Shown: one piece after another, positions 54,232-62,407 of the stretch | How the letters are laid out: each line of letters opens with the position of its first letter | How positions within the stretch are numbered: position 1 is the first letter of the stretch | Source: Clostridia bacterium | GTDB taxonomy: Bacteria; Bacillota; Clostridia; UMGS1883; UMGS1540 | Length of the DNA stretch: 64,000 nt | NCBI GenBank assembly: GCA_045533905.1 | Contig: JAZSIR010000001.1 | Location: 32,001-96,000 of the forward strand | Direction: 5' to 3' | The notes under the pieces: model-generated | Seen by the model: only the letters and a program-made list of their open reading frames with translations | Told to the model about the DNA's origin: nothing | Databases searched by the model: none | Position numbers and translations under genes: made by a program

Positions 54232-54420
54232 TCATATGCATATAAATCTTTTACTTCTGCATACATCATTTTTGAAAAGCTCTGCTCTTATAAACCGATA
54301 CAGTTTAGACCGCAAGCCTTGCGCCGGCGACCATAATATATATGTACCGGAATAAACGGAAATGGCATTTGCCATATCTGCCGCCAGATATACGCCTGCG
54401 GCACCGCTCCATCCGAAATA
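54232..54420 (-). pseudogene. C-terminal remnant of a beta-lactamase-family serine hydrolase
   Basis: Hand translation YFGWSGAAGVYLAAD...; compare FGWSGAYG in 57954-59078; cut off at the repeat at 54427. Confidence 0.6.
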
Positions 54421-54426
54421 GACATC

Positions 54427-54457
54427 CTTTATATAAAGACTGTATAATCTGGATGCC
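54427..54457 (+). repeat. 31-bp direct repeat, copy 1
   Basis: CTTTATATAAAGACTGTATAATCTGGATGCC, identical at 56530-56560. Confidence 0.9.
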
Positions 54458-54502
54458 GGTCTTTTTAGCTGCGGTTGTTACTACAACCACATTAGGTGTA
54501 AA

Positions 54503-56506
54503 CTATAGTTTGCCCAATATTTTTATTGCATAATATAACGCCCAGTCCTGATCGTTCGCAAAGCTATCATATTTATGACCTGATGCGACACCCGGTCTCA
54601 TATGTGCGTTCTCATATCCTGCTACGGAAGAATACTGCATTACCTTATACGGAACCAGATATCCGGCAGAAGCAAAACCATTTTCGAAATAAACGCAAAG
54701 ATTGTTCTTTACTACAGCCTCCGCATACTCCCTATACGCACTTTCAAATCCACACTTATATAGGAAATCATATGTTTCAGCAGACAATGCACATAGCCAT
54801 TGGGGCATAGTATCACCATAAGTTTTGCTTTTCCCAAACCAATACAAATCCCAGTAGCGAACAGCATTCATATTTACGTGATAATCAGGTTGCCTTGCAA
54901 AAAACGCATTTGATTTTTCGATGAATCCTGGTGCCATTTCAAGATATTTTTTATCACCTGAAAGCATATATGCCTGACACAAAATATTCACTTTGCCATT
55001 GAACATAAACTGCGTACATTTCACTTCTTCAGAAAAACATTTACTGCCGTCTCTTATAATTCTTTCTGCGTGAACAAGGGTATGATGTATAAGTCTTTCC
55101 CTGAGTTCATGCAAGCCTTCTGCCTGAAGTAATTCGCATATTTCGTATGTTCTTATGCATGGGGATTCCTGCTCTCCTCCCCGTACCTTTTCATAATACG
55201 AAACCATAGTACGCGCAGAAATTTCAAGACATTCCTTTTCTTTTGTAAGCAAATACCATTCAAGATAATACACAGCCATCCACGGATAATTATATGCACG
55301 CTTCCATTTATCATCGCGATTTACGCCGTTGTATACGGTTGCAGTGTCTTTATCAAAAATTTCCCTTTCAATGAACCTTCGGTGTTTAATCAAGGATTTC
55401 ATCATAGTTTCATCGTATCTTTTTTGCAAAGCCTGTGCCACTACAACCCCCATTGACAATCTTTCACGGCACGCATTGTTGTCCTGAAAACACTCATCAT
55501 AATATAGCTTGTCTGTGTCTCTGTCATAAATAAGGTATGCACCGTCAAGACAACTCCCCGATCTGTGATATTGTTGTTTTGTTGTGATAAACTCAGCTCT
55601 TTTTATAACAATTTCATCAAGCGGTAATAATATATTTATTTTTAACCATAATAATTTACCATTTACCGACAAATAAATCGTTCTTTCTCCAGGAGTCTTG
55701 AAGGAATGTGTCCATTTTGCTTTGTTTCCGAATTTAGTGTACTTTATTTCTTTATCTTCACATACAATTTTCAAATCATCCCAACAATCAAGACTATCAA
55801 ACTCGCATTCAACAGCTTCGTCTATAAAAGCACTGTATTTATTTGCAATTATTTTCATCCTGGAAAACTCATTCAATATTCCCTCGTCCGGAGCTATATT
55901 GTCGAAACGAAATACAAATGACAAAGTTATACTTTCTCCCGGTGCAACTACAATATCACCCGGATGCAACACTATATCACCACGGTAACTCGCGCCTACC
56001 TTTACGCGGCTCACATCGTAGCTGATGCTGTAATCAGCTATTCCTCCTTTGACTATGTTACATACAAGGTAAGGTTTTATACCGCTCGGTTTCGCTGAAT
56101 ACATCCACGCGCCATCTCCACCACACCAGACGTGTGTTATGCACGAATTATTATGCAAATTGGTTTTGTTCTCAAATGTACAGTTATAAGGAAAGTGTAT
56201 TCCCAGATTATCTTTTGTAAAAAAGTATTCAGAGCAATTATTATTTGTTATGCAGTAGCACTCTGTATATATCCCGTTTTTTACTCTTTTATTAACACAT
56301 AATTCGAGCGATTGATTTTCCGAATACACATCAATACCATCTTCTGCATTCATTACCCGATAATTCTCAAAGCCGATAACCTTTCCCCAATCTGAATTTT
56401 CTAAAATCCAGTTAAATCCATATTCATCATCCGGATTATATATCGCTGTGGTATAGCCATTAACTTCATCGAATGCAACACAAATTTTACCATCATTATA
56501 CTTCAT
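54503..56506 (-). CDS. Six-hairpin glycosidase-like protein
   Basis: RAYNYPW, RYWDLYWFGK..YGDT, FANDQDWAL; helical C-terminal half; AT-richer DNA. Confidence 0.65.
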   Translation of the reverse strand: MKYNDGKICVAFDEVNGYTTAIYNPDDEYGFNWILENSDWGKVIGFENYRVMNAEDGIDVYSENQSLELCVNKRVKNGIYTECYCITNNNCSEYFFTKDNLGIHFPYNCTFENKTNLHNNSCITHVWCGGDGAWMYSAKPSGIKPYLVCNIVKGGIADYSISYDVSRVKVGASYRGDIVLHPGDIVVAPGESITLSFVFRFDNIAPDEGILNEFSRMKIIANKYSAFIDEAVECEFDSLDCWDDLKIVCEDKEIKYTKFGNKAKWTHSFKTPGERTIYLSVNGKLLWLKINILLPLDEIVIKRAEFITTKQQYHRSGSCLDGAYLIYDRDTDKLYYDECFQDNNACRERLSMGVVVAQALQKRYDETMMKSLIKHRRFIEREIFDKDTATVYNGVNRDDKWKRAYNYPWMAVYYLEWYLLTKEKECLEISARTMVSYYEKVRGGEQESPCIRTYEICELLQAEGLHELRERLIHHTLVHAERIIRDGSKCFSEEVKCTQFMFNGKVNILCQAYMLSGDKKYLEMAPGFIEKSNAFFARQPDYHVNMNAVRYWDLYWFGKSKTYGDTMPQWLCALSAETYDFLYKCGFESAYREYAEAVVKNNLCVYFENGFASAGYLVPYKVMQYSSVAGYENAHMRPGVASGHKYDSFANDQDWALYYAIKILGKL

Positions 56507-56529
56507 ATCTATACACTCCTTTTGAAATT

Positions 56530-56560
56530 CTTTATATAAAGACTGTATAATCTGGATGCC
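56530..56560 (+). repeat. 31-bp direct repeat, copy 2
   Basis: Identical to 54427-54457. Confidence 0.9.
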
Positions 56561-56620
56561 ACTTTTTATGTTTATTGCGACACATAAGGTTTAGATGCAA
56601 CTTTTCAAAGGCTCCCTTGA

Positions 56621-57069
56621 GGCTCCCTTGTGTAAAGGGAGCTGTCAGCGAAGCTGACTGAGGGATTGTTTCACTACATTATCTATAAACATACAAACTC
56701 CATCAAAGTTTTTCAAAACATCAAGATTTGATATTCGGATAACTTTTATCCCATATTGTTCTAAATAAGCAGTTCTTTTTTCATCATTGAAAAGCCCGTC
56801 ATCTTCGTAGTGTTGCGAACCATCTAACTCTATAACAACATTTGCTTTTGCGCAATAGAAGTCTGCTATATATTTACCTAACACCTTTTGCCTTGTAAAC
56901 TTTATAGGATAACTTCTTAAAAAATCATACCAAAGATGTCTTTCTTCTTTAGTCATATTTTTTCTAAGTTCCTTTGCAAATGGAACTATTTTATTATTAT
57001 GTTTTCTATCCATTTACAACCCCTCCGAGTTTGCTTCGCAAACTCACCTCCCCTTGCACAGGGGAGGCT
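56621..57069 (-). mobile_element. DUF559 gene flanked by inverted REP-like double hairpins
   Basis: Left 56621-56669 and right 57016-57069 are related hairpin pairs in opposite orientation. Confidence 0.6.
56645..57013 (-). CDS. DUF559 (Vsr-like PD-(D/E)XK) endonuclease
   Basis: AKELRKNMTKEERHLW, FTRQ, YIADFYC, IELDGSQH. Confidence 0.92.
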   Translation of the reverse strand: MDRKHNNKIVPFAKELRKNMTKEERHLWYDFLRSYPIKFTRQKVLGKYIADFYCAKANVVIELDGSQHYEDDGLFNDEKRTAYLEQYGIKVIRISNLDVLKNFDGVCMFIDNVVKQSLSQLR

Positions 57070-57219
57070 TTTTCCTTTTCGTCATATTTCGACATCTTTA
57101 CATTGCGAGGCATAAGGTTTAGATGCAAGTCTTTTTAGCATAGCGAATGCGACATATAAGGTTTAGATGCAAACCTTTTTGGTGGCTGTTAATATCAAGA
57201 CATATAAATAAATTGGAAT

Positions 57220-57870
57220 TTACTTAACTGCCTTTAGCGTATAAGTTGCTCCCCAATGGTTCAAAACTTCGACCGCAGAAAACCCTGCTTCAAGTAATGC
57301 TTCCGTTTCATGCTTTACGGTAAGAGGTGTATCGTAATGATAGAATTCATCATCACAAATACCTTGTTCTGCTTTCAATGCTGACAAATTCCGTCTGTGC
57401 ATCTGTTCTTCTTCATCGGATAATGAAAAATAATCCGTAAGGATAAAACATCCCTTATCCTTTATTGCCGTATGTAGTTTAGAGTATAACGCAATCTTTG
57501 CTTCTTTTCTGAAATGATGCAGACTCTCCACCGATACCGCTGCATCGAATACGTTCTCGCCCAAAGGCACATTAAAATACGAGCCGAGTATCAAGGTTAT
57601 ATCCTTGCCCACGAATTTACGCTTGAGTTCGGCTAACATTCCTTGCGAGAGGTCAATTCCTGTAACCTTTGCTAACGGATTCTGCGTATAGTATTCTTGA
57701 AGTTCTAATCCCGTGCCACAGCCCAAATCAAGCACGTGGCAGTTTTCAGTGGTCGGCAATTGTTTTGCTGTAAAGGGATAGAATTCGTTTGCGGATTCGA
57801 TGTTGGTCATCATATGCTCATCGTATCCATCAAGTCTTGCTTCAAAAAAATCGCTCATTTTTTCAAGCAT
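57220..57870 (-). CDS. Class I SAM-dependent methyltransferase
   Basis: VLDLGCGTG, GIDLS. Confidence 0.92.
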   Translation of the reverse strand: MLEKMSDFFEARLDGYDEHMMTNIESANEFYPFTAKQLPTTENCHVLDLGCGTGLELQEYYTQNPLAKVTGIDLSQGMLAELKRKFVGKDITLILGSYFNVPLGENVFDAAVSVESLHHFRKEAKIALYSKLHTAIKDKGCFILTDYFSLSDEEEQMHRRNLSALKAEQGICDDEFYHYDTPLTVKHETEALLEAGFSAVEVLNHWGATYTLKAVK

Positions 57871-57953
57871 ACATAACCTCCTACAAATTCTTATTTATCT
57901 GTTCGACATTTTTCGACATATCAATAATACTTGCGTTAAGTTAATGGCAAAAA

Positions 57954-59078
57954 TCAATATATCATTGCATTAAATACAGCCTCTTCAAATCGACGTGCTG
58001 AACTATTTCCTGCTCCTCCATCAAATCTGGAGTTTTTCATAAATACTGCGCAAATATCATTTTTAGGATCTACCCAAAAGTGAGATCCATAAGCTCCACT
58101 CCACCCAAAACTTCCAACAGATAAATGCGGATATTCCTCATCCGTGATAACACGCACACCTAACCCCCATTTTTGATAGCCCGGCATAATTTTTTCCGAC
58201 ACATAGGCTTTTGAAAGCTTGTTGATTGCCTGTTCAGATACAATTCGATTATTGTTTATTTCCCCTTTATTTAAAAGCATTTGTGCAAAGTTTGAATAAT
58301 CATCTAGTGTGGACACCAATCCGGCACCTGCAAGCCTGTGTTCACAAGGAAATCTTTCAAACACACACCCGGAATAAGTTATACCAATATCATTTTTTTC
58401 ATCAACTTTGTTATGCATCATCATAAGCTGTTTCCATTGTTTTTCCGTTGGTGAAAAAGTTGTGTTTAACATATTGCACGGAACAAAAATTTCATTTTTC
58501 AAAAAAGTTTCATAGTCTTGTTTTGTTACATATTCAACAATCGCCGCAAGCACATCAAAAGCGGCAAACGCACTATATGCTTGCTTTGTAAATGGTTCAA
58601 AATCCAGTCCTGCGTTTATATAACACTTTACTGTATTTGAAATAGTTTCCCTATCATCCTCAGACATAGCAATAATCTTATCACTACCAAATCCGGATGT
58701 ATGTGTCAAGCAATGTAAAATTGTTACCGGTGTTTTTGTTTTTCCTAAATCTGCGCCATCGGAAGTTATAACATGTATATCTTCAAATTCAGGGATATAT
58801 TTACTAACAGGTTCATCAAGAGAAATCAATCCTCTATCAACCAAAATCAGTATTGCCACTGCTGTTATTGGTTTTGTCATCGAAGCAAGACGATATATCG
58901 TGGTGTCATCCACCTGTTCTTTACCATCAATGCTTGTATGCCCAAAATGTTTCTTCAATACCACTTCGCCATTCTGATATACAAAATAAGATGATCCAAA
59001 CAAATTATTGTTTGTTAAATCAAATGTTGCAATTTTCTCAACATTGTGTTTGAGTTTTTCTTTGTTCAACAGTCTCAT
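57954..59078 (-). CDS. Serine hydrolase, beta-lactamase family
   Basis: ASMTK (SxxK), LTHTSG, FGWSGAYG; no signal peptide. Confidence 0.92.
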   Translation of the reverse strand: MRLLNKEKLKHNVEKIATFDLTNNNLFGSSYFVYQNGEVVLKKHFGHTSIDGKEQVDDTTIYRLASMTKPITAVAILILVDRGLISLDEPVSKYIPEFEDIHVITSDGADLGKTKTPVTILHCLTHTSGFGSDKIIAMSEDDRETISNTVKCYINAGLDFEPFTKQAYSAFAAFDVLAAIVEYVTKQDYETFLKNEIFVPCNMLNTTFSPTEKQWKQLMMMHNKVDEKNDIGITYSGCVFERFPCEHRLAGAGLVSTLDDYSNFAQMLLNKGEINNNRIVSEQAINKLSKAYVSEKIMPGYQKWGLGVRVITDEEYPHLSVGSFGWSGAYGSHFWVDPKNDICAVFMKNSRFDGGAGNSSARRFEEAVFNAMIY

Positions 59079-59181
59079 GTTTTGTTTCTCCTTTTATTTA
59101 CTAAAAAATGTTGTTAATAGTTCATATAAACTTATGTCTAAAAAATGTATAAACAAATTTTAAGTTATCTCCGGACATCTA

Positions 59182-60030
59182 TCAATACAGCCCCACATCC
59201 ACAAAAACCGGCGAATGATCAGACAAAGGTAGGTAATAATCCGGGGTATACCGTTCAAAACGATGCACAAAACCTGCCGGTGAAAATTTCACCATAATAT
59301 GATCTATTCCTTTTTCAAACGGTGCTCTCACATAAGGCTTGTAGCCATCGCCAAAACAATAGTGGTAGCCCCAATCCTGGTCAGCAAAATCCGTGGCAAT
59401 ATCGTGGGCGTGTGCATAACCTCTGCTTAGCGCATTTTGAATTACAGAGCTTGTGTATCTTGCGTTAAAATCGCCCACCAAAACCACAGGACAGTTGTAT
59501 ATGTTATGAAATTTCTCCAGACGGTCCATTGCCATGTTCAGTTGGTAAACTCTCGCCTCATCAGAACCTGCCTGATAGTTTTTTGAATCAGAACTACCAC
59601 TCATCCACCAAAGATGGGTAGTCATAAAAACAAGCTTTTTCCCGTCTGTTTTATCTTGAAACACAGCACAGCACCATGATTTTGTTCCGTTGTTGTTGAA
59701 TTCGCCATCCCAGCCCGGAACTTCCGTAGGGTACATCAAAAAATCAGAATCCAACAGCTCCAGTCGCTCCTGACGATACAGTACCGGAGTATCTTTACCC
59801 CACAGCAAGGCATAACAATACCCCTGCTCCAACAGCCCCTGAATAATATGATCAGACATAACATGTGACATTTCTTGGAAACCAATGATGTCGGGCTGTG
59901 TATCAGCATAAACCCGTACCATCCCCTTTGCCCTTGCAATCGCAGAACAATCTTCTCCTTTTATTTCCCATGCAGGGAGATTGTTGTCACACTTCCAAAC
60001 ATTGTGACTCATAATACGCAACTTCCCCAT
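59182..60030 (-). CDS. Endonuclease/exonuclease/phosphatase family protein
   Basis: MSHNV, DIIGFQE, GDFNA, IDHI, SDHSPV. Confidence 0.92.
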   Translation of the reverse strand: MGKLRIMSHNVWKCDNNLPAWEIKGEDCSAIARAKGMVRVYADTQPDIIGFQEMSHVMSDHIIQGLLEQGYCYALLWGKDTPVLYRQERLELLDSDFLMYPTEVPGWDGEFNNNGTKSWCCAVFQDKTDGKKLVFMTTHLWWMSGSSDSKNYQAGSDEARVYQLNMAMDRLEKFHNIYNCPVVLVGDFNARYTSSVIQNALSRGYAHAHDIATDFADQDWGYHYCFGDGYKPYVRAPFEKGIDHIMVKFSPAGFVHRFERYTPDYYLPLSDHSPVFVDVGLY

Positions 60031-60170
60031 AAAAATTCCTCCAATAATTTTTTGATATGTGTAAAAAAACACTTTGACTTTCAATATATTTTGATATATT
60101 CACTCTATAAACTCGTGTTAAGTCAAAAGCGAAAAACATTACCGTTCTGCATCTTCATTAAGTGTTTCAA

Positions 60171-60224
60171 TATAAAAACTTGTCCTTCTTTCAAATCTCA
60201 CGTATGCTCAATCGGATTTTCGTA
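60171..60224 (-). pseudogene. Short remnant resembling a TIGR04076-family protein
   Basis: YENPIEHT*DLKEGQVFI, recalled family motif YENPIEHACD..EGQVF with Cys replaced by a stop. Confidence 0.4.
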
Positions 60225-60258
60225 TATAATTCGTGGCCGATTCAGTTGCGGGCACTTC

Positions 60259-62283
60259 TCAGCTAATAACAGCTTTTTTCAAAACAACAACTCCATAAGG
60301 TTTTATCATTTCTTCTTCGAAATTGCCGCTTATAATTTCATAACCGGCTGGCAAATTCACCTTCTTTTCCTCATTATTGAAATTCATAATAAAAATGTAA
60401 TTATTGTTTGAGGAATAGCGCATTGTTACGCTTACATTTTCAGGCGTTTCGAAAACCTTATCAGCTGATATAATGTCCTTAAGCCATTCTTTATACAATT
60501 TTATATACCCATCAGTCATTAAATCCGTAGCTATGTAATATGCCTTACCTTTGCCATATTCATTTACTGTTACGGCAGGCATATCTTTATAAAAATCTTC
60601 ACAGTATTTTCCTATTACCGTCGCTCCTTCGAGGTATGCAAGCTCGCAATATTTCTCACTTCGGTATGACGTACCAAACATTTTGACAAAATTATACTGA
60701 CCGTCATACAGCGAATCCGTTTCCTCCGTCTTTACACCAAGTAATTTTCGCAAAGGATAACACTCTTTATCAAAAAAGCTCAGACCATATTCATCCACAA
60801 CGCCTGTTCCGAAAGTGGTTACAAAAATCCCGCCGTTTTTTACATAATCCTCGATTTTTTCTTTCAGACCATTTTTTAACATAAAAAGCATCGGTGCAAT
60901 GACAACTTTATATTTCGAGAAATCGTCATTTTCAAAAACAAAATCACAGCCTATATTAAGCTGCCACAATGCTCCGTAGTTTTTCATAAGAGTATCTGAA
61001 TATCCTTTATCCTCGTCTATATTTCTGTATGCCTGCGAAATTCTCAAACTCCAGAAACTGTCGTAATCGAACAGAATCGCCACTTCATTTCGTGTAAGTG
61101 AACTTGCAATTTCTCCAATGTTTTTGAGCTCTTCTCCCACCTCTGCAACTTCTCTGAATACTCTCGTATCCTCACTGTTATCATGCCCGACAACAGCACC
61201 GTGGAACTGCTCGGACTGGCCTCTGCTTTTTCTCCACTGGAAATACTGAACGGTATTGCTGCCATGAGCAACCGCCTGCATCGATGCCAAAAGGTGCATG
61301 CCCGGGCGTCTTAACCTTGAAACCGCCTGCCAGTTTGTTGCAGAAGGTGAGCTTTCCATCAACATAAACGGCTTATCCTTTTTAAATGAGTTGAACAGCG
61401 AATGAAACAATGCAGTTTCAGCTGCCTCTTTGTATTCGTTATCACTTGAATGCCATGCCGGGTAATTATCCCAAGATATAACATCTATGCTTTTTGAAAG
61501 CTTGGCATAGTCAATTTCCCAGAATCTCATAAAATTCGTCGTAACGGGAATATCCGGATTTATTCTCTTTACTGCAGCTGCTTCGCAGTCAAGAAAATCC
61601 TGCAGCATAGAATTTTTAAACCTGACCCACTCCAGTTTAAGAGGATTGGAAGAATTTTCTCCGTGTTGCCCCGGAGGCTCAATCTGCGAAAAGCTCTGAT
61701 ATGTATGCGACCAAAACCCATTCCACCATTTTTCATTAAGGCTATCTATGGTTTTATACTTATTTTCAAGCCATTTTCTGAAATTTTCACAGCACAACGG
61801 GCAATGGCAATCCCGTACATTATATTCATTGGAAATATGCCACATCAAAATACCCGGATGATTTGAATATCTTTCAGCAAGCTTTGTGTTGATTATTCTC
61901 ACTTTTTCTCTGTATACAGGCGATGAATAGCAGTTGTTGTGACGGTTTCCGAATCTGTCTCTTATTCCGTCCTCCTGCACACGTTTTACTTCCGGATATT
62001 TTTCAGCCATCCATGCAGGCATTGCACCGGACGGTGTCGCAAGTATTGTATATATACCGTTTTCATAAAGAGTATCTATAATTTTATCAAGCCATTCGAA
62101 TTCAAAAACGCCTTCCTTCGGCTCAAGCCTGGACCATGCAAAAATCCCTACCGACATAACATTACAGCCGGACTTTTTCATCAGCTCAATATCCTTTTCA
62201 AGAACTTCAGGATAACTGAGCCATTGGTCAGGGTTATAATCACAACCGTGCCATATACCTCTTAATTTTTGATTAATGTTCAT
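60259..62283 (-). CDS. Beta-galactosidase, GH42
   Basis: GCDYNPDQW, FAWSRLEP, WHISNEY, SWDNYP, FMLMES. Confidence 0.95.
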   Translation of the reverse strand: MNINQKLRGIWHGCDYNPDQWLSYPEVLEKDIELMKKSGCNVMSVGIFAWSRLEPKEGVFEFEWLDKIIDTLYENGIYTILATPSGAMPAWMAEKYPEVKRVQEDGIRDRFGNRHNNCYSSPVYREKVRIINTKLAERYSNHPGILMWHISNEYNVRDCHCPLCCENFRKWLENKYKTIDSLNEKWWNGFWSHTYQSFSQIEPPGQHGENSSNPLKLEWVRFKNSMLQDFLDCEAAAVKRINPDIPVTTNFMRFWEIDYAKLSKSIDVISWDNYPAWHSSDNEYKEAAETALFHSLFNSFKKDKPFMLMESSPSATNWQAVSRLRRPGMHLLASMQAVAHGSNTVQYFQWRKSRGQSEQFHGAVVGHDNSEDTRVFREVAEVGEELKNIGEIASSLTRNEVAILFDYDSFWSLRISQAYRNIDEDKGYSDTLMKNYGALWQLNIGCDFVFENDDFSKYKVVIAPMLFMLKNGLKEKIEDYVKNGGIFVTTFGTGVVDEYGLSFFDKECYPLRKLLGVKTEETDSLYDGQYNFVKMFGTSYRSEKYCELAYLEGATVIGKYCEDFYKDMPAVTVNEYGKGKAYYIATDLMTDGYIKLYKEWLKDIISADKVFETPENVSVTMRYSSNNNYIFIMNFNNEEKKVNLPAGYEIISGNFEEEMIKPYGVVVLKKAVIS

Positions 62284-62407
62284 AAGTAGCACCTCATCCT
62301 ATTATTTATAAATATGTTTTATGTAATTAAGCGACAACTACGTCACCATAAATTCTCGTTGCCGTAAGTCTCTTATCAAGTCAAGAGCAAAATCTAACTG
62401 CCCCAAA

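Follow-up and report, generated by a model that had tools for sequence, protein, structure and literature searches.

Single-gene units bounded by recurring repeat arms in a Clostridia genome: a probable cassette stack and its candidate large serine recombinases

The window analysed here is a 64-kb stretch of DNA from a Clostridia bacterium, corresponding to positions 32001-96000 of contig C11 in a genome of 1.57 Mb that is 95.5% complete. Between 54 and 62 kb of the window, GC content drops from about 0.49 to 0.34-0.42 over an array of one-gene units separated by a family of related repeats. An earlier note on this DNA had described the array as functionally unrelated, AT-richer genes, and indeed its six one-gene units have GC contents of 0.35-0.42, against 0.48 and 0.50 in the flanks. 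The note had also stressed that all of them lie on the minus strand. They are co-oriented, but all annotated genes between 50.4 and 63.7 kb, flanks included, share this strand, so that co-orientation by itself is no evidence. The neighbours of the array are a cyclase-family gene on one side and a PF03601 gene on the other.

Units and repeat arms in the window

The repeats form three types of arm, which we read in gene direction and name S (TTTT..TRACTTRACACGAAC), A (..GGCATCTAGATTATACAGTCTTTA) and B (..TGCATCTAAACCTTATGTGTCGCA). The arms often precede boxes of the sequence TGTCGAA (V), together with a ribosome-binding site. With weight matrices trained solely on loci from other genomes and a relaxed cut-off, nine arms were found in the window; all of them lie on the minus strand, between 54434 and 62395. 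At a stricter cut-off, the whole genome contains 23 arms at six loci and the reversed genome none. All features described in this section are on the minus strand, and scores in brackets are matrix scores.

At the low-coordinate end, the array starts with what is left of a PF00144-type serine hydrolase gene (54232-54417), its final ~60 codons, the 5' ~310 codons being missing; over 51 residues it is 73% identical to residues 310-360 of a 379-residue PF00144 protein (P0140). This gene had been taken to be cut at the first repeat; the remnant is real, but its similarity to such hydrolases begins at 54417, 17 nt beyond the end of the arm. By sequence and junction geometry, 54421-54433 is a truncated left end of a cassette (TA, 7 nt, TGTC) fused to the remnant, and the stretch 54232-54433 resembles an older cassette from which an internal part was deleted. 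The adjoining A arm (54434-54470, 52.7) forms the right end of a unit of 2,103 bp between two A arms, the other being at 56537-56573 (48.4). A worn S/B-like stretch at 54478-54505, some 39 nt upstream from where the A arm ends, falls below the matrix cut-off. The gene in this unit (54503-56506) encodes a 667-residue protein without a Pfam match, whose only match in the PDB is BACCELL_00875 (E 2e-67), described as a PL27 rhamnose-glucuronate lyase (PMC8377490). The perfect 31-bp direct repeat that brackets it (54427-54457 and 56530-56560) is exact as first reported, with the correction that the gene resembles a PL27 lyase rather than a glycosidase.

The next junction consists of a B arm (56576-56611, 53.1) that leads through AT and a linker into the A arm. 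It is followed by a unit of 454 bp (56620-57074), in which a DUF559 gene (56645-57013, identified by Pfam) is flanked by hairpins and carried as a cassette. The same unit occurs in many relatives, both with and without arms, and hairpin pairs that enclose no gene are found as well; the hairpin-flanked DUF559 unit looks like a separate small mobile element. The left end of its cassette is marked by tandem V boxes (57078-57094), 9 nt after a B arm (57104-57139, 55.6). A further B arm (57148-57183, 52.1) is the right end of the methyltransferase unit. The 25-bp repeat that had been counted three times corresponds to these three B copies, which are 80-84% alike over 25 nt and not identical, and the likeness noted between the spacers at 54421-54469 and 57091-57139 amounts to 29 matches in 49 positions.

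The methyltransferase gene (57220-57870) belongs to the class I S-adenosylmethionine-dependent family by Pfam, and in one metagenome run (X4) its unit spans 57156-57922. A deletion of 12 bp at 57199, where run X4 has 12 extra letters, damages its S arm. The gene is also bracketed by a 14-bp inverted pair, ATAAATAAGAATTT and AAATTCCAATTTAT (57208-57221 and 57885-57898; see also G000 C13:113978-115970), and a relative shares exactly 57210-57899; this pair may represent a second, nested cassette system. Tandem V boxes at 57902-57918 are located 9 nt after an S arm (57928-57955, 15.1). There are four such tandem V sites in the genome, two of them after a scored arm and a third after a near-threshold arm.

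The remaining three units are a PF00144 serine hydrolase of 374 residues (57954-59078), an endonuclease/exonuclease/phosphatase (EEP)-family gene (59182-60084, in a unit spanning 59117-60109) and a GH42 beta-galactosidase (60259-62292, GC 0.39), all assigned by Pfam. The hydrolase scores far below all beta-lactamase cut-offs and has an esterase family as its best match. Between the units are a divergent S arm followed by AT (59119-59146, 11.9) and an S arm at 60110-60137 (25.7), and a weak S arm directly after the stop codon of the cyclase gene (62368-62395, 15.1) forms the upstream edge of the array. The repeats, earlier described as clear only to about 59.2 kb, hence span the whole interval, weakly so at 62368. 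The GH42 gene is likely to be a cassette as well, if less well supported than the other units, and no long near-identical piece of it is among the metagenome matches listed. The edges may themselves be older, settled cassettes, since the PF03601, cyclase and CAAX-protease genes that flank the array have homologs (54-65% identity) that are arm-flanked cassettes elsewhere. The window contains no tRNA or tmRNA gene, so the array is not located at one (nor at ssrA), and Rfam had no match between 50 and 64 kb.

Sharing of units and geometry of the junctions

Three units of the window recur in other gut metagenomes with identities of about 97-99.7%, and two of them end at arms. In the contigs of four such metagenomes the cargo is nearly unchanged, with the host flank (51-53.1 kb) hardly covered. 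The serine hydrolase is represented by near-identical pieces in all four runs, as is the EEP unit; the EEP pieces, with 2-9 differences each, end at 59117 in four of four runs and at 60105-60109 in three of four, that is, at the two S arms.

The earlier note would have been refuted by an invariant gene content between the repeats and by repeats confined to this array. The test went the other way: five further loci of this genome and many other genomes carry the repeats, and the genes that they enclose differ. In a genome scan, the exact 23-mer of the B arm was found in at least 127 stretches; the named records are Clostridia and Oscillospiraceae assemblies, from herbivore gut wherever the title gives a source. 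The B pattern is present in 21 of 58 genomes of the order, with none in the control. As a marker for arrays we used a non-coding unit of ~290 bp that is tied to S arms and found in 75 of 399 genomes of the class. This unit (L026:1670-1985; G000 C11:125995-126258 and 104549-104745) has an S arm at either end, the two in inverted orientation, as well as a promoter-like box and hairpins, and might act as a small RNA or as a portable promoter; a reading frame in it that resembled the tail of a large serine recombinase was rejected, as it spans a variable insert. The genes beside arrays vary from array to array, which implies that there is no fixed anchor gene. No arms were detected in plasmid and phage collections, and viral contigs gave 1 and 0 matches.

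Within a locus, the motifs have fixed spacings and a common strand (358 cases against 1). This orientation bears on a reading of the repeats as ends or remnants of non-autonomous DDE transposons, of the miniature inverted-repeat element or mobile insertion cassette type, clustered at a hot spot. The inverted S arms of the ~290-bp unit and the separate inverted pair around the methyltransferase gene would suit such elements, but the arms are direct, one-sided and strand-locked, there is no target duplication beyond 1-3 bp, and 150 of 340 representatives of site-adjacent proteins included no transposase. We therefore consider a transposon origin very improbable.

For comparison, the junctions were brought into one register (A22, B22, S16). 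In this register, the right end of a unit is an S arm, an arm of the form 'GCATCTA + 22 nt' (A or B), or both, and each unit starts at a 2-bp step, TA or AT, usually followed by 7 nt, TGTCGAA boxes and a ribosome-binding site. Where a junction has V, this box starts at a distance of 9 nt from the arm for A in 58 of 69 cases, for B in 62 of 101 and for S in 38 of 69, and in those with this spacing the step is TA after A (56/58) and AT after B (61/62). The arrangement A|TA|V approximates an inverted repeat about the TA. A geometry of half-sites around a central dinucleotide fits A|TA|V, as well as the C|CA junctions described below; S and B junctions are less symmetric and their core varies. Identity shared across junctions is limited to 1-3 bp, and such a short step between dyad-related arms matches what serine recombinases use (as described in PMC13739063 and PMC10083194). 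Every combination of arm and unit end occurs, so directionality must be loose.

Depending on the host, the same unit can stand behind S or behind A or B (L061/L239, L038/L109, L061/L104), the break falling where the arm ends. These swaps argue against an explanation in which the arms mainly provide short stretches of homology and signals for expression (promoter, Spo0A boxes, ribosome-binding site) and between which genes are exchanged by homologous or illegitimate recombination after DNA uptake. In favour of this explanation, V equals the core of the Spo0A box (0A-box), TGTCGAA, as given in PMC3485338, the A and B arms resemble promoters of the -35/17/-10 type in sequence, and, among 59 ends at which segments shared over at least 300 bp (93%) stop, 41 lie off the exact point. 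Homology cannot, however, produce a break at the same base when unlike arms (S, A, B) are swapped before one unit; in addition, several left ends lack a V box, and homologous arms also close elements at tRNA ends, with no gene after them. Exchange by homology thus appears improbable to us as the origin of the arrays, and a regulatory role of V, given its match to the Spo0A box, may coexist with a role of the junctions in recombination.

Large serine recombinase modules at the same junctions

As the earlier note had stated, the window contains no recombinase: all five tyrosine recombinase and all five large serine recombinase (LSR) matches of the genome are outside it. They include a triplet of LSRs at C11:26.7-30.7 kb, 1.3-5.3 kb to the left of the window; as relatives of the second module described below these three were rejected, since they fall outside its clade in the tree. 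A C-like arm at C11:26077 is inside an open reading frame (ORF) and may be due to chance. A tyrosine recombinase of 281 residues (C11:2158-3003) was rejected as the enzyme of the array because its own paired sites differ from the arms. Recombinases of this type (~280 residues; L003, which is G000 C11:2158-3003, and L253, L256, L259, L261) are 60-78% identical across families and have behind them two CACATAA-N6-TTATGTG sites, mutually inverted, that enclose a promoter-like stretch; they are probably promoter invertases.

Next to the sites, the Pfam scan of 150 of the 340 site-adjacent protein representatives detected neither recombinases nor transposases, and clustering 1,218 ORFs with the recombinases of this genome yielded no recombinase next to sites. 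In longer stretches around the sites we found two modules, each composed of a recombinase-domain-only ORF and a full LSR and starting exactly after such arms. Their LSRs have a resolvase domain with intact YxRxS motif, a recombinase domain and a zinc ribbon, with no match to DUF4368, and their fold matches that of serine integrases. For comparison, 80 of 80 viral LSR loci have no arm, and 45 other LSR loci, most of them with flanks of only 1.5 kb, gave one loose arm match. Some LSRs (L298:10260-11861, P0020-P0023) are fused to sigma-70 region 2, and longer relatives have regions 2 and 4.

Module 1 comprises a recombinase-domain ORF of 200 residues and an LSR of 533 residues, with a sigma-2-like tail in homologs. 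In G054 and G057 (97% identical) it is located at S|AT, behind different genes; in a metagenome contig of run X1 it follows an S arm in a third context, and in one short contig its left end comes after a tRNA-like end. It was absent from two other small orders (0/18 and 0/14), and a search with its left end in a sample of 401 genomes of the phylum gave only chance-level matches.

Module 2 comprises a recombinase-domain ORF of 111-157 residues, a KilA-N gene and an LSR of ~515 residues. It occurs in nine of 399 genomes of the class at identities of at least 59% (a tenth match at 45% is left out), which span seven families. Eight of the nine are marker-positive, compared to 75 of 399 overall (Fisher p 9e-6, with kin not being independent). 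Counting duplicate handles once, there are 17 copies, of which five are cut by contig ends. The 12 readable left junctions are S arms (4), CCA ends of tRNA-Cys or tmRNA genes (3, by ARAGORN), a partial tRNA-like end (1), a C arm (1) and TG-N-TATAAT boxes (3). A related module, L404, is located at a tmRNA end. In a midpoint-rooted tree of 24 rows, computed from the first 400 residues, twelve module-2 LSRs form one clade (100/100), and its subclades (89/90, 100/99, 100/100) track the junction type. The downstream arms past the cargo correspond: A or B in the S group, 'GCATCTA..22|CA' (C arms) in the CCA group and 'GCATCTA..22|TA' (D arms) in the TATAAT group. All of them share the distal GCATCTA box at a fixed distance and differ next to the core. 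The elements of the TATAAT subclade (L379, L380, L382; see also G000 C19:~20426) begin at TG-N-TATAAT and have TATAA after the right arm, which suggests that they insert into promoter -10 boxes. The left end of module 2 (L377-L394) contains an inverted repeat of 14 bp, with AT at the centre of its 24-nt spacer; all copies have it undamaged, so this is not where the site is split.

The genome of the window has counterparts of these other junctions. The C-arm pattern matches it seven times, compared to two in the reversed genome, and two of the seven matches are less than 5 kb after a tRNA gene (3.4 kb after tRNA-Cys and 4.3 kb after tRNA-Lys). There is also one D arm. In another locus (L302:13150-13532), a C-type cassette of ~330 bp without a gene is located behind tRNA-Leu, with CCA and terminator repeated at both ends. 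The cargo directly behind the modules (L378, L381, L382, L384, L386, L076, L088) is mostly defence-like and includes DpnII restriction-modification, SIR2, TIR, RES, Abi, helicase and deaminase genes; cassettes farther from the modules are often metabolic.

We consider it probable that the window holds a stack of one-gene cassettes without a recombinase of their own, and that their junctions are attachment (att) sites of LSRs carried by small related elements absent from this genome. The sites are likely two-armed junctions at many loci, and the enzyme is likely an LSR. By this account, an LSR, probably with its helper ORF, would circularise a cassette so that right arm, core and left end are joined, and the circle would reinsert at another junction, with relaxed directionality as for Ccr in composites of the staphylococcal cassette chromosome (SCC). 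Reinsertion at existing junctions would let stacks grow, as in SCC composites and in the accretion of cis-mobilizable elements (CIMEs). Relatives in the same LSR clade would use other targets: those with C arms and a CA step the CCA ends of tRNA or tmRNA genes, those with D arms and a TA step TATAAT boxes. The order B-linker-A fits insertion at an S-linker-A site, and there are faint indications that each cassette brings a spare intact target at S.

Several observations weigh against this account. Neither module is present in this genome, whose best LSR shares 39% identity with module 1 and falls outside the clade of module 2, so the array would be orphaned or served by a passing element. Module 1 is present in just two of 87 genomes of the order and, above 50% identity, in none of 399, module 2 in eight of the 75 marker-positive genomes and four of 50 B-site handles, and a complete marker-positive genome (G236) contains no resolvase domain. 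The core is no single invariant dinucleotide, since TA and AT are found along with shifted forms; of the module-2 elements at S arms, four have an A end and two a B end; and AT is kept in 36 of 39 B-to-linker joints, the S-to-linker joints being degenerate, which weakens the step of insertion at S-linker-A. Only 18 of the 59 ends of shared segments lie within -1..+4 of the arm end; 48 lie within -45..+30 and ten are more than 60 nt off, indicating that the junction module is the boundary and that the exact point holds for about a third. The serine hydrolase of the window and its counterpart in L226 have different right arms with a break near the stop codon, and such breaks imply that right arms are replaceable too. 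Finally, none of the joints listed (15 of 110) bypasses the lyase unit, in runs from which the host strain is absent.

The sparseness of the modules could also mean that cassettes and sites are real and the LSR modules mere passengers, the mover being a Xer-type or other tyrosine recombinase or an HUH transposase. Most site-positive genomes, being incomplete assemblies, lack modules, XerC-like and XerD-like genes are present in five of five positive genomes tested and in this one, and many cassettes are hairpin-rich, non-coding units of the repetitive extragenic palindrome type. A Xer-type enzyme would, however, call for a shared overlap of 6-8 bp, in place of the 1-3 bp of junction identity; at 35 tyrosine recombinase loci we found no arm alongside beyond loose matches; and a Y1 transposase occurs in just three of five genomes. 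Such a mover would moreover leave unexplained why the junction type tracks the LSR tree, and we regard it as unlikely.

Relation to known systems

The reading of the array as an LSR-dependent cassette stack brings it closest to SCC composites and ccr-less elements, whose att sites are described as two degenerate inverted half-sites around a central dinucleotide and which form tandem stacks with recombinase-less members (PMC13739063). As described, SCC elements are 11-158 kb long, insert at the 3' end of rlmH around the core TATCATAA and have CcrA. The units here are single genes of 0.2-2.3 kb, with different arm motifs and a recombinase-domain-only ORF as helper, and they occur at many loci with varied neighbours, in the window between the cyclase-family and PF03601 genes; an rlmH-type gene is beside a site at one locus (L113). 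A second likeness is to the ssrA islands of Dehalococcoides (DsiB/DsiA), which, according to PMC3146451, combine an LSR of ~540 residues with a smaller recombinase-related partner and form tandem islands behind the tmRNA gene, some without an integration module, much as the C-type subclade is found at tmRNA and tRNA ends. These islands are bounded by a 20-bp ssrA repeat, in contrast to CCA plus an arm here, and their partner is described as having the catalytic domain and no DNA-binding motif, whereas ours consists of the DNA-binding recombinase domain alone.

Elements without a recombinase that retain their att sites and accumulate are also described for CIMEs and integrative mobilizable elements (IMEs), including the Tn4451-type IMEs with serine recombinases (PMC5704250), and very short shared cores with several targets for multi-targeting clostridial LSRs (PMC10083194). 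Unlike CIMEs and IMEs, the modules have no relaxase or replication gene that we could see, and the cassettes are minimal and cross family borders. Xer/pdif modules consist of dif-like 11-6-11 inverted pairs, whereas the arms here have direct orientation and no 6-bp spacer contains the break; a search of this genome with a dif pattern gave no dif site for comparison.

The earlier note had proposed an integron-like capture array with non-attC sites, acted on in trans. Co-oriented one-gene units with a site after the stop codon, sharing across species and an enzyme that is not alongside are indeed features of integron arrays and of attC-site clusters without an integron-integrase (CALINs), as described in PMC4889954, and the site-bounded units, the non-attC sites and the distant enzyme fit this proposal. 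There is, however, no single anchored array or attI-like site, no attC hairpin and no link to IntI, and the chemistry that the junctions point to is that of serine, not tyrosine, recombinases. DNA folding of seven junction stretches revealed no attC-like hairpin (z between -1.1 and +1.2 for six, -2.3/-3.0 for one), and all five tyrosine recombinases of the genome score far below integron-integrase cut-offs. The array is thus likely a variant of SCC- or ssrA-island-type cassette stacking and not an integron, with an integron-like layout and a likely SCC- or ssrA-island-like chemistry, belonging to neither.

We found no description of this system in the open-access literature; new are the two modules of recombinase-domain ORF and LSR that start exactly at these arms, and together with the junction geometry they make cassette movement directly assayable on plasmids. 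More tentatively, and with less confidence than in the cassette stack itself, we propose that one LSR clade with its helper has split into versions for CCA ends, TATAAT boxes and cassette arms, and that rare modules shuffle a pool of cassettes across at least seven families, as the equivalent of the integron in Clostridia of the herbivore gut. A clade with close members at CCA ends, promoter boxes and cassette arms would show a change of target by an integrase. The IntegronFinder survey reports complete integrons to be absent from all Firmicutes genomes (PMC4889954). If the LSR modules move the cassettes, gut Clostridia would have integron-like gene exchange without an integron, and the arrays would be a counterpart through which carbohydrate enzymes, hydrolases, toxin-antitoxin and defence genes are shared between species as single units.

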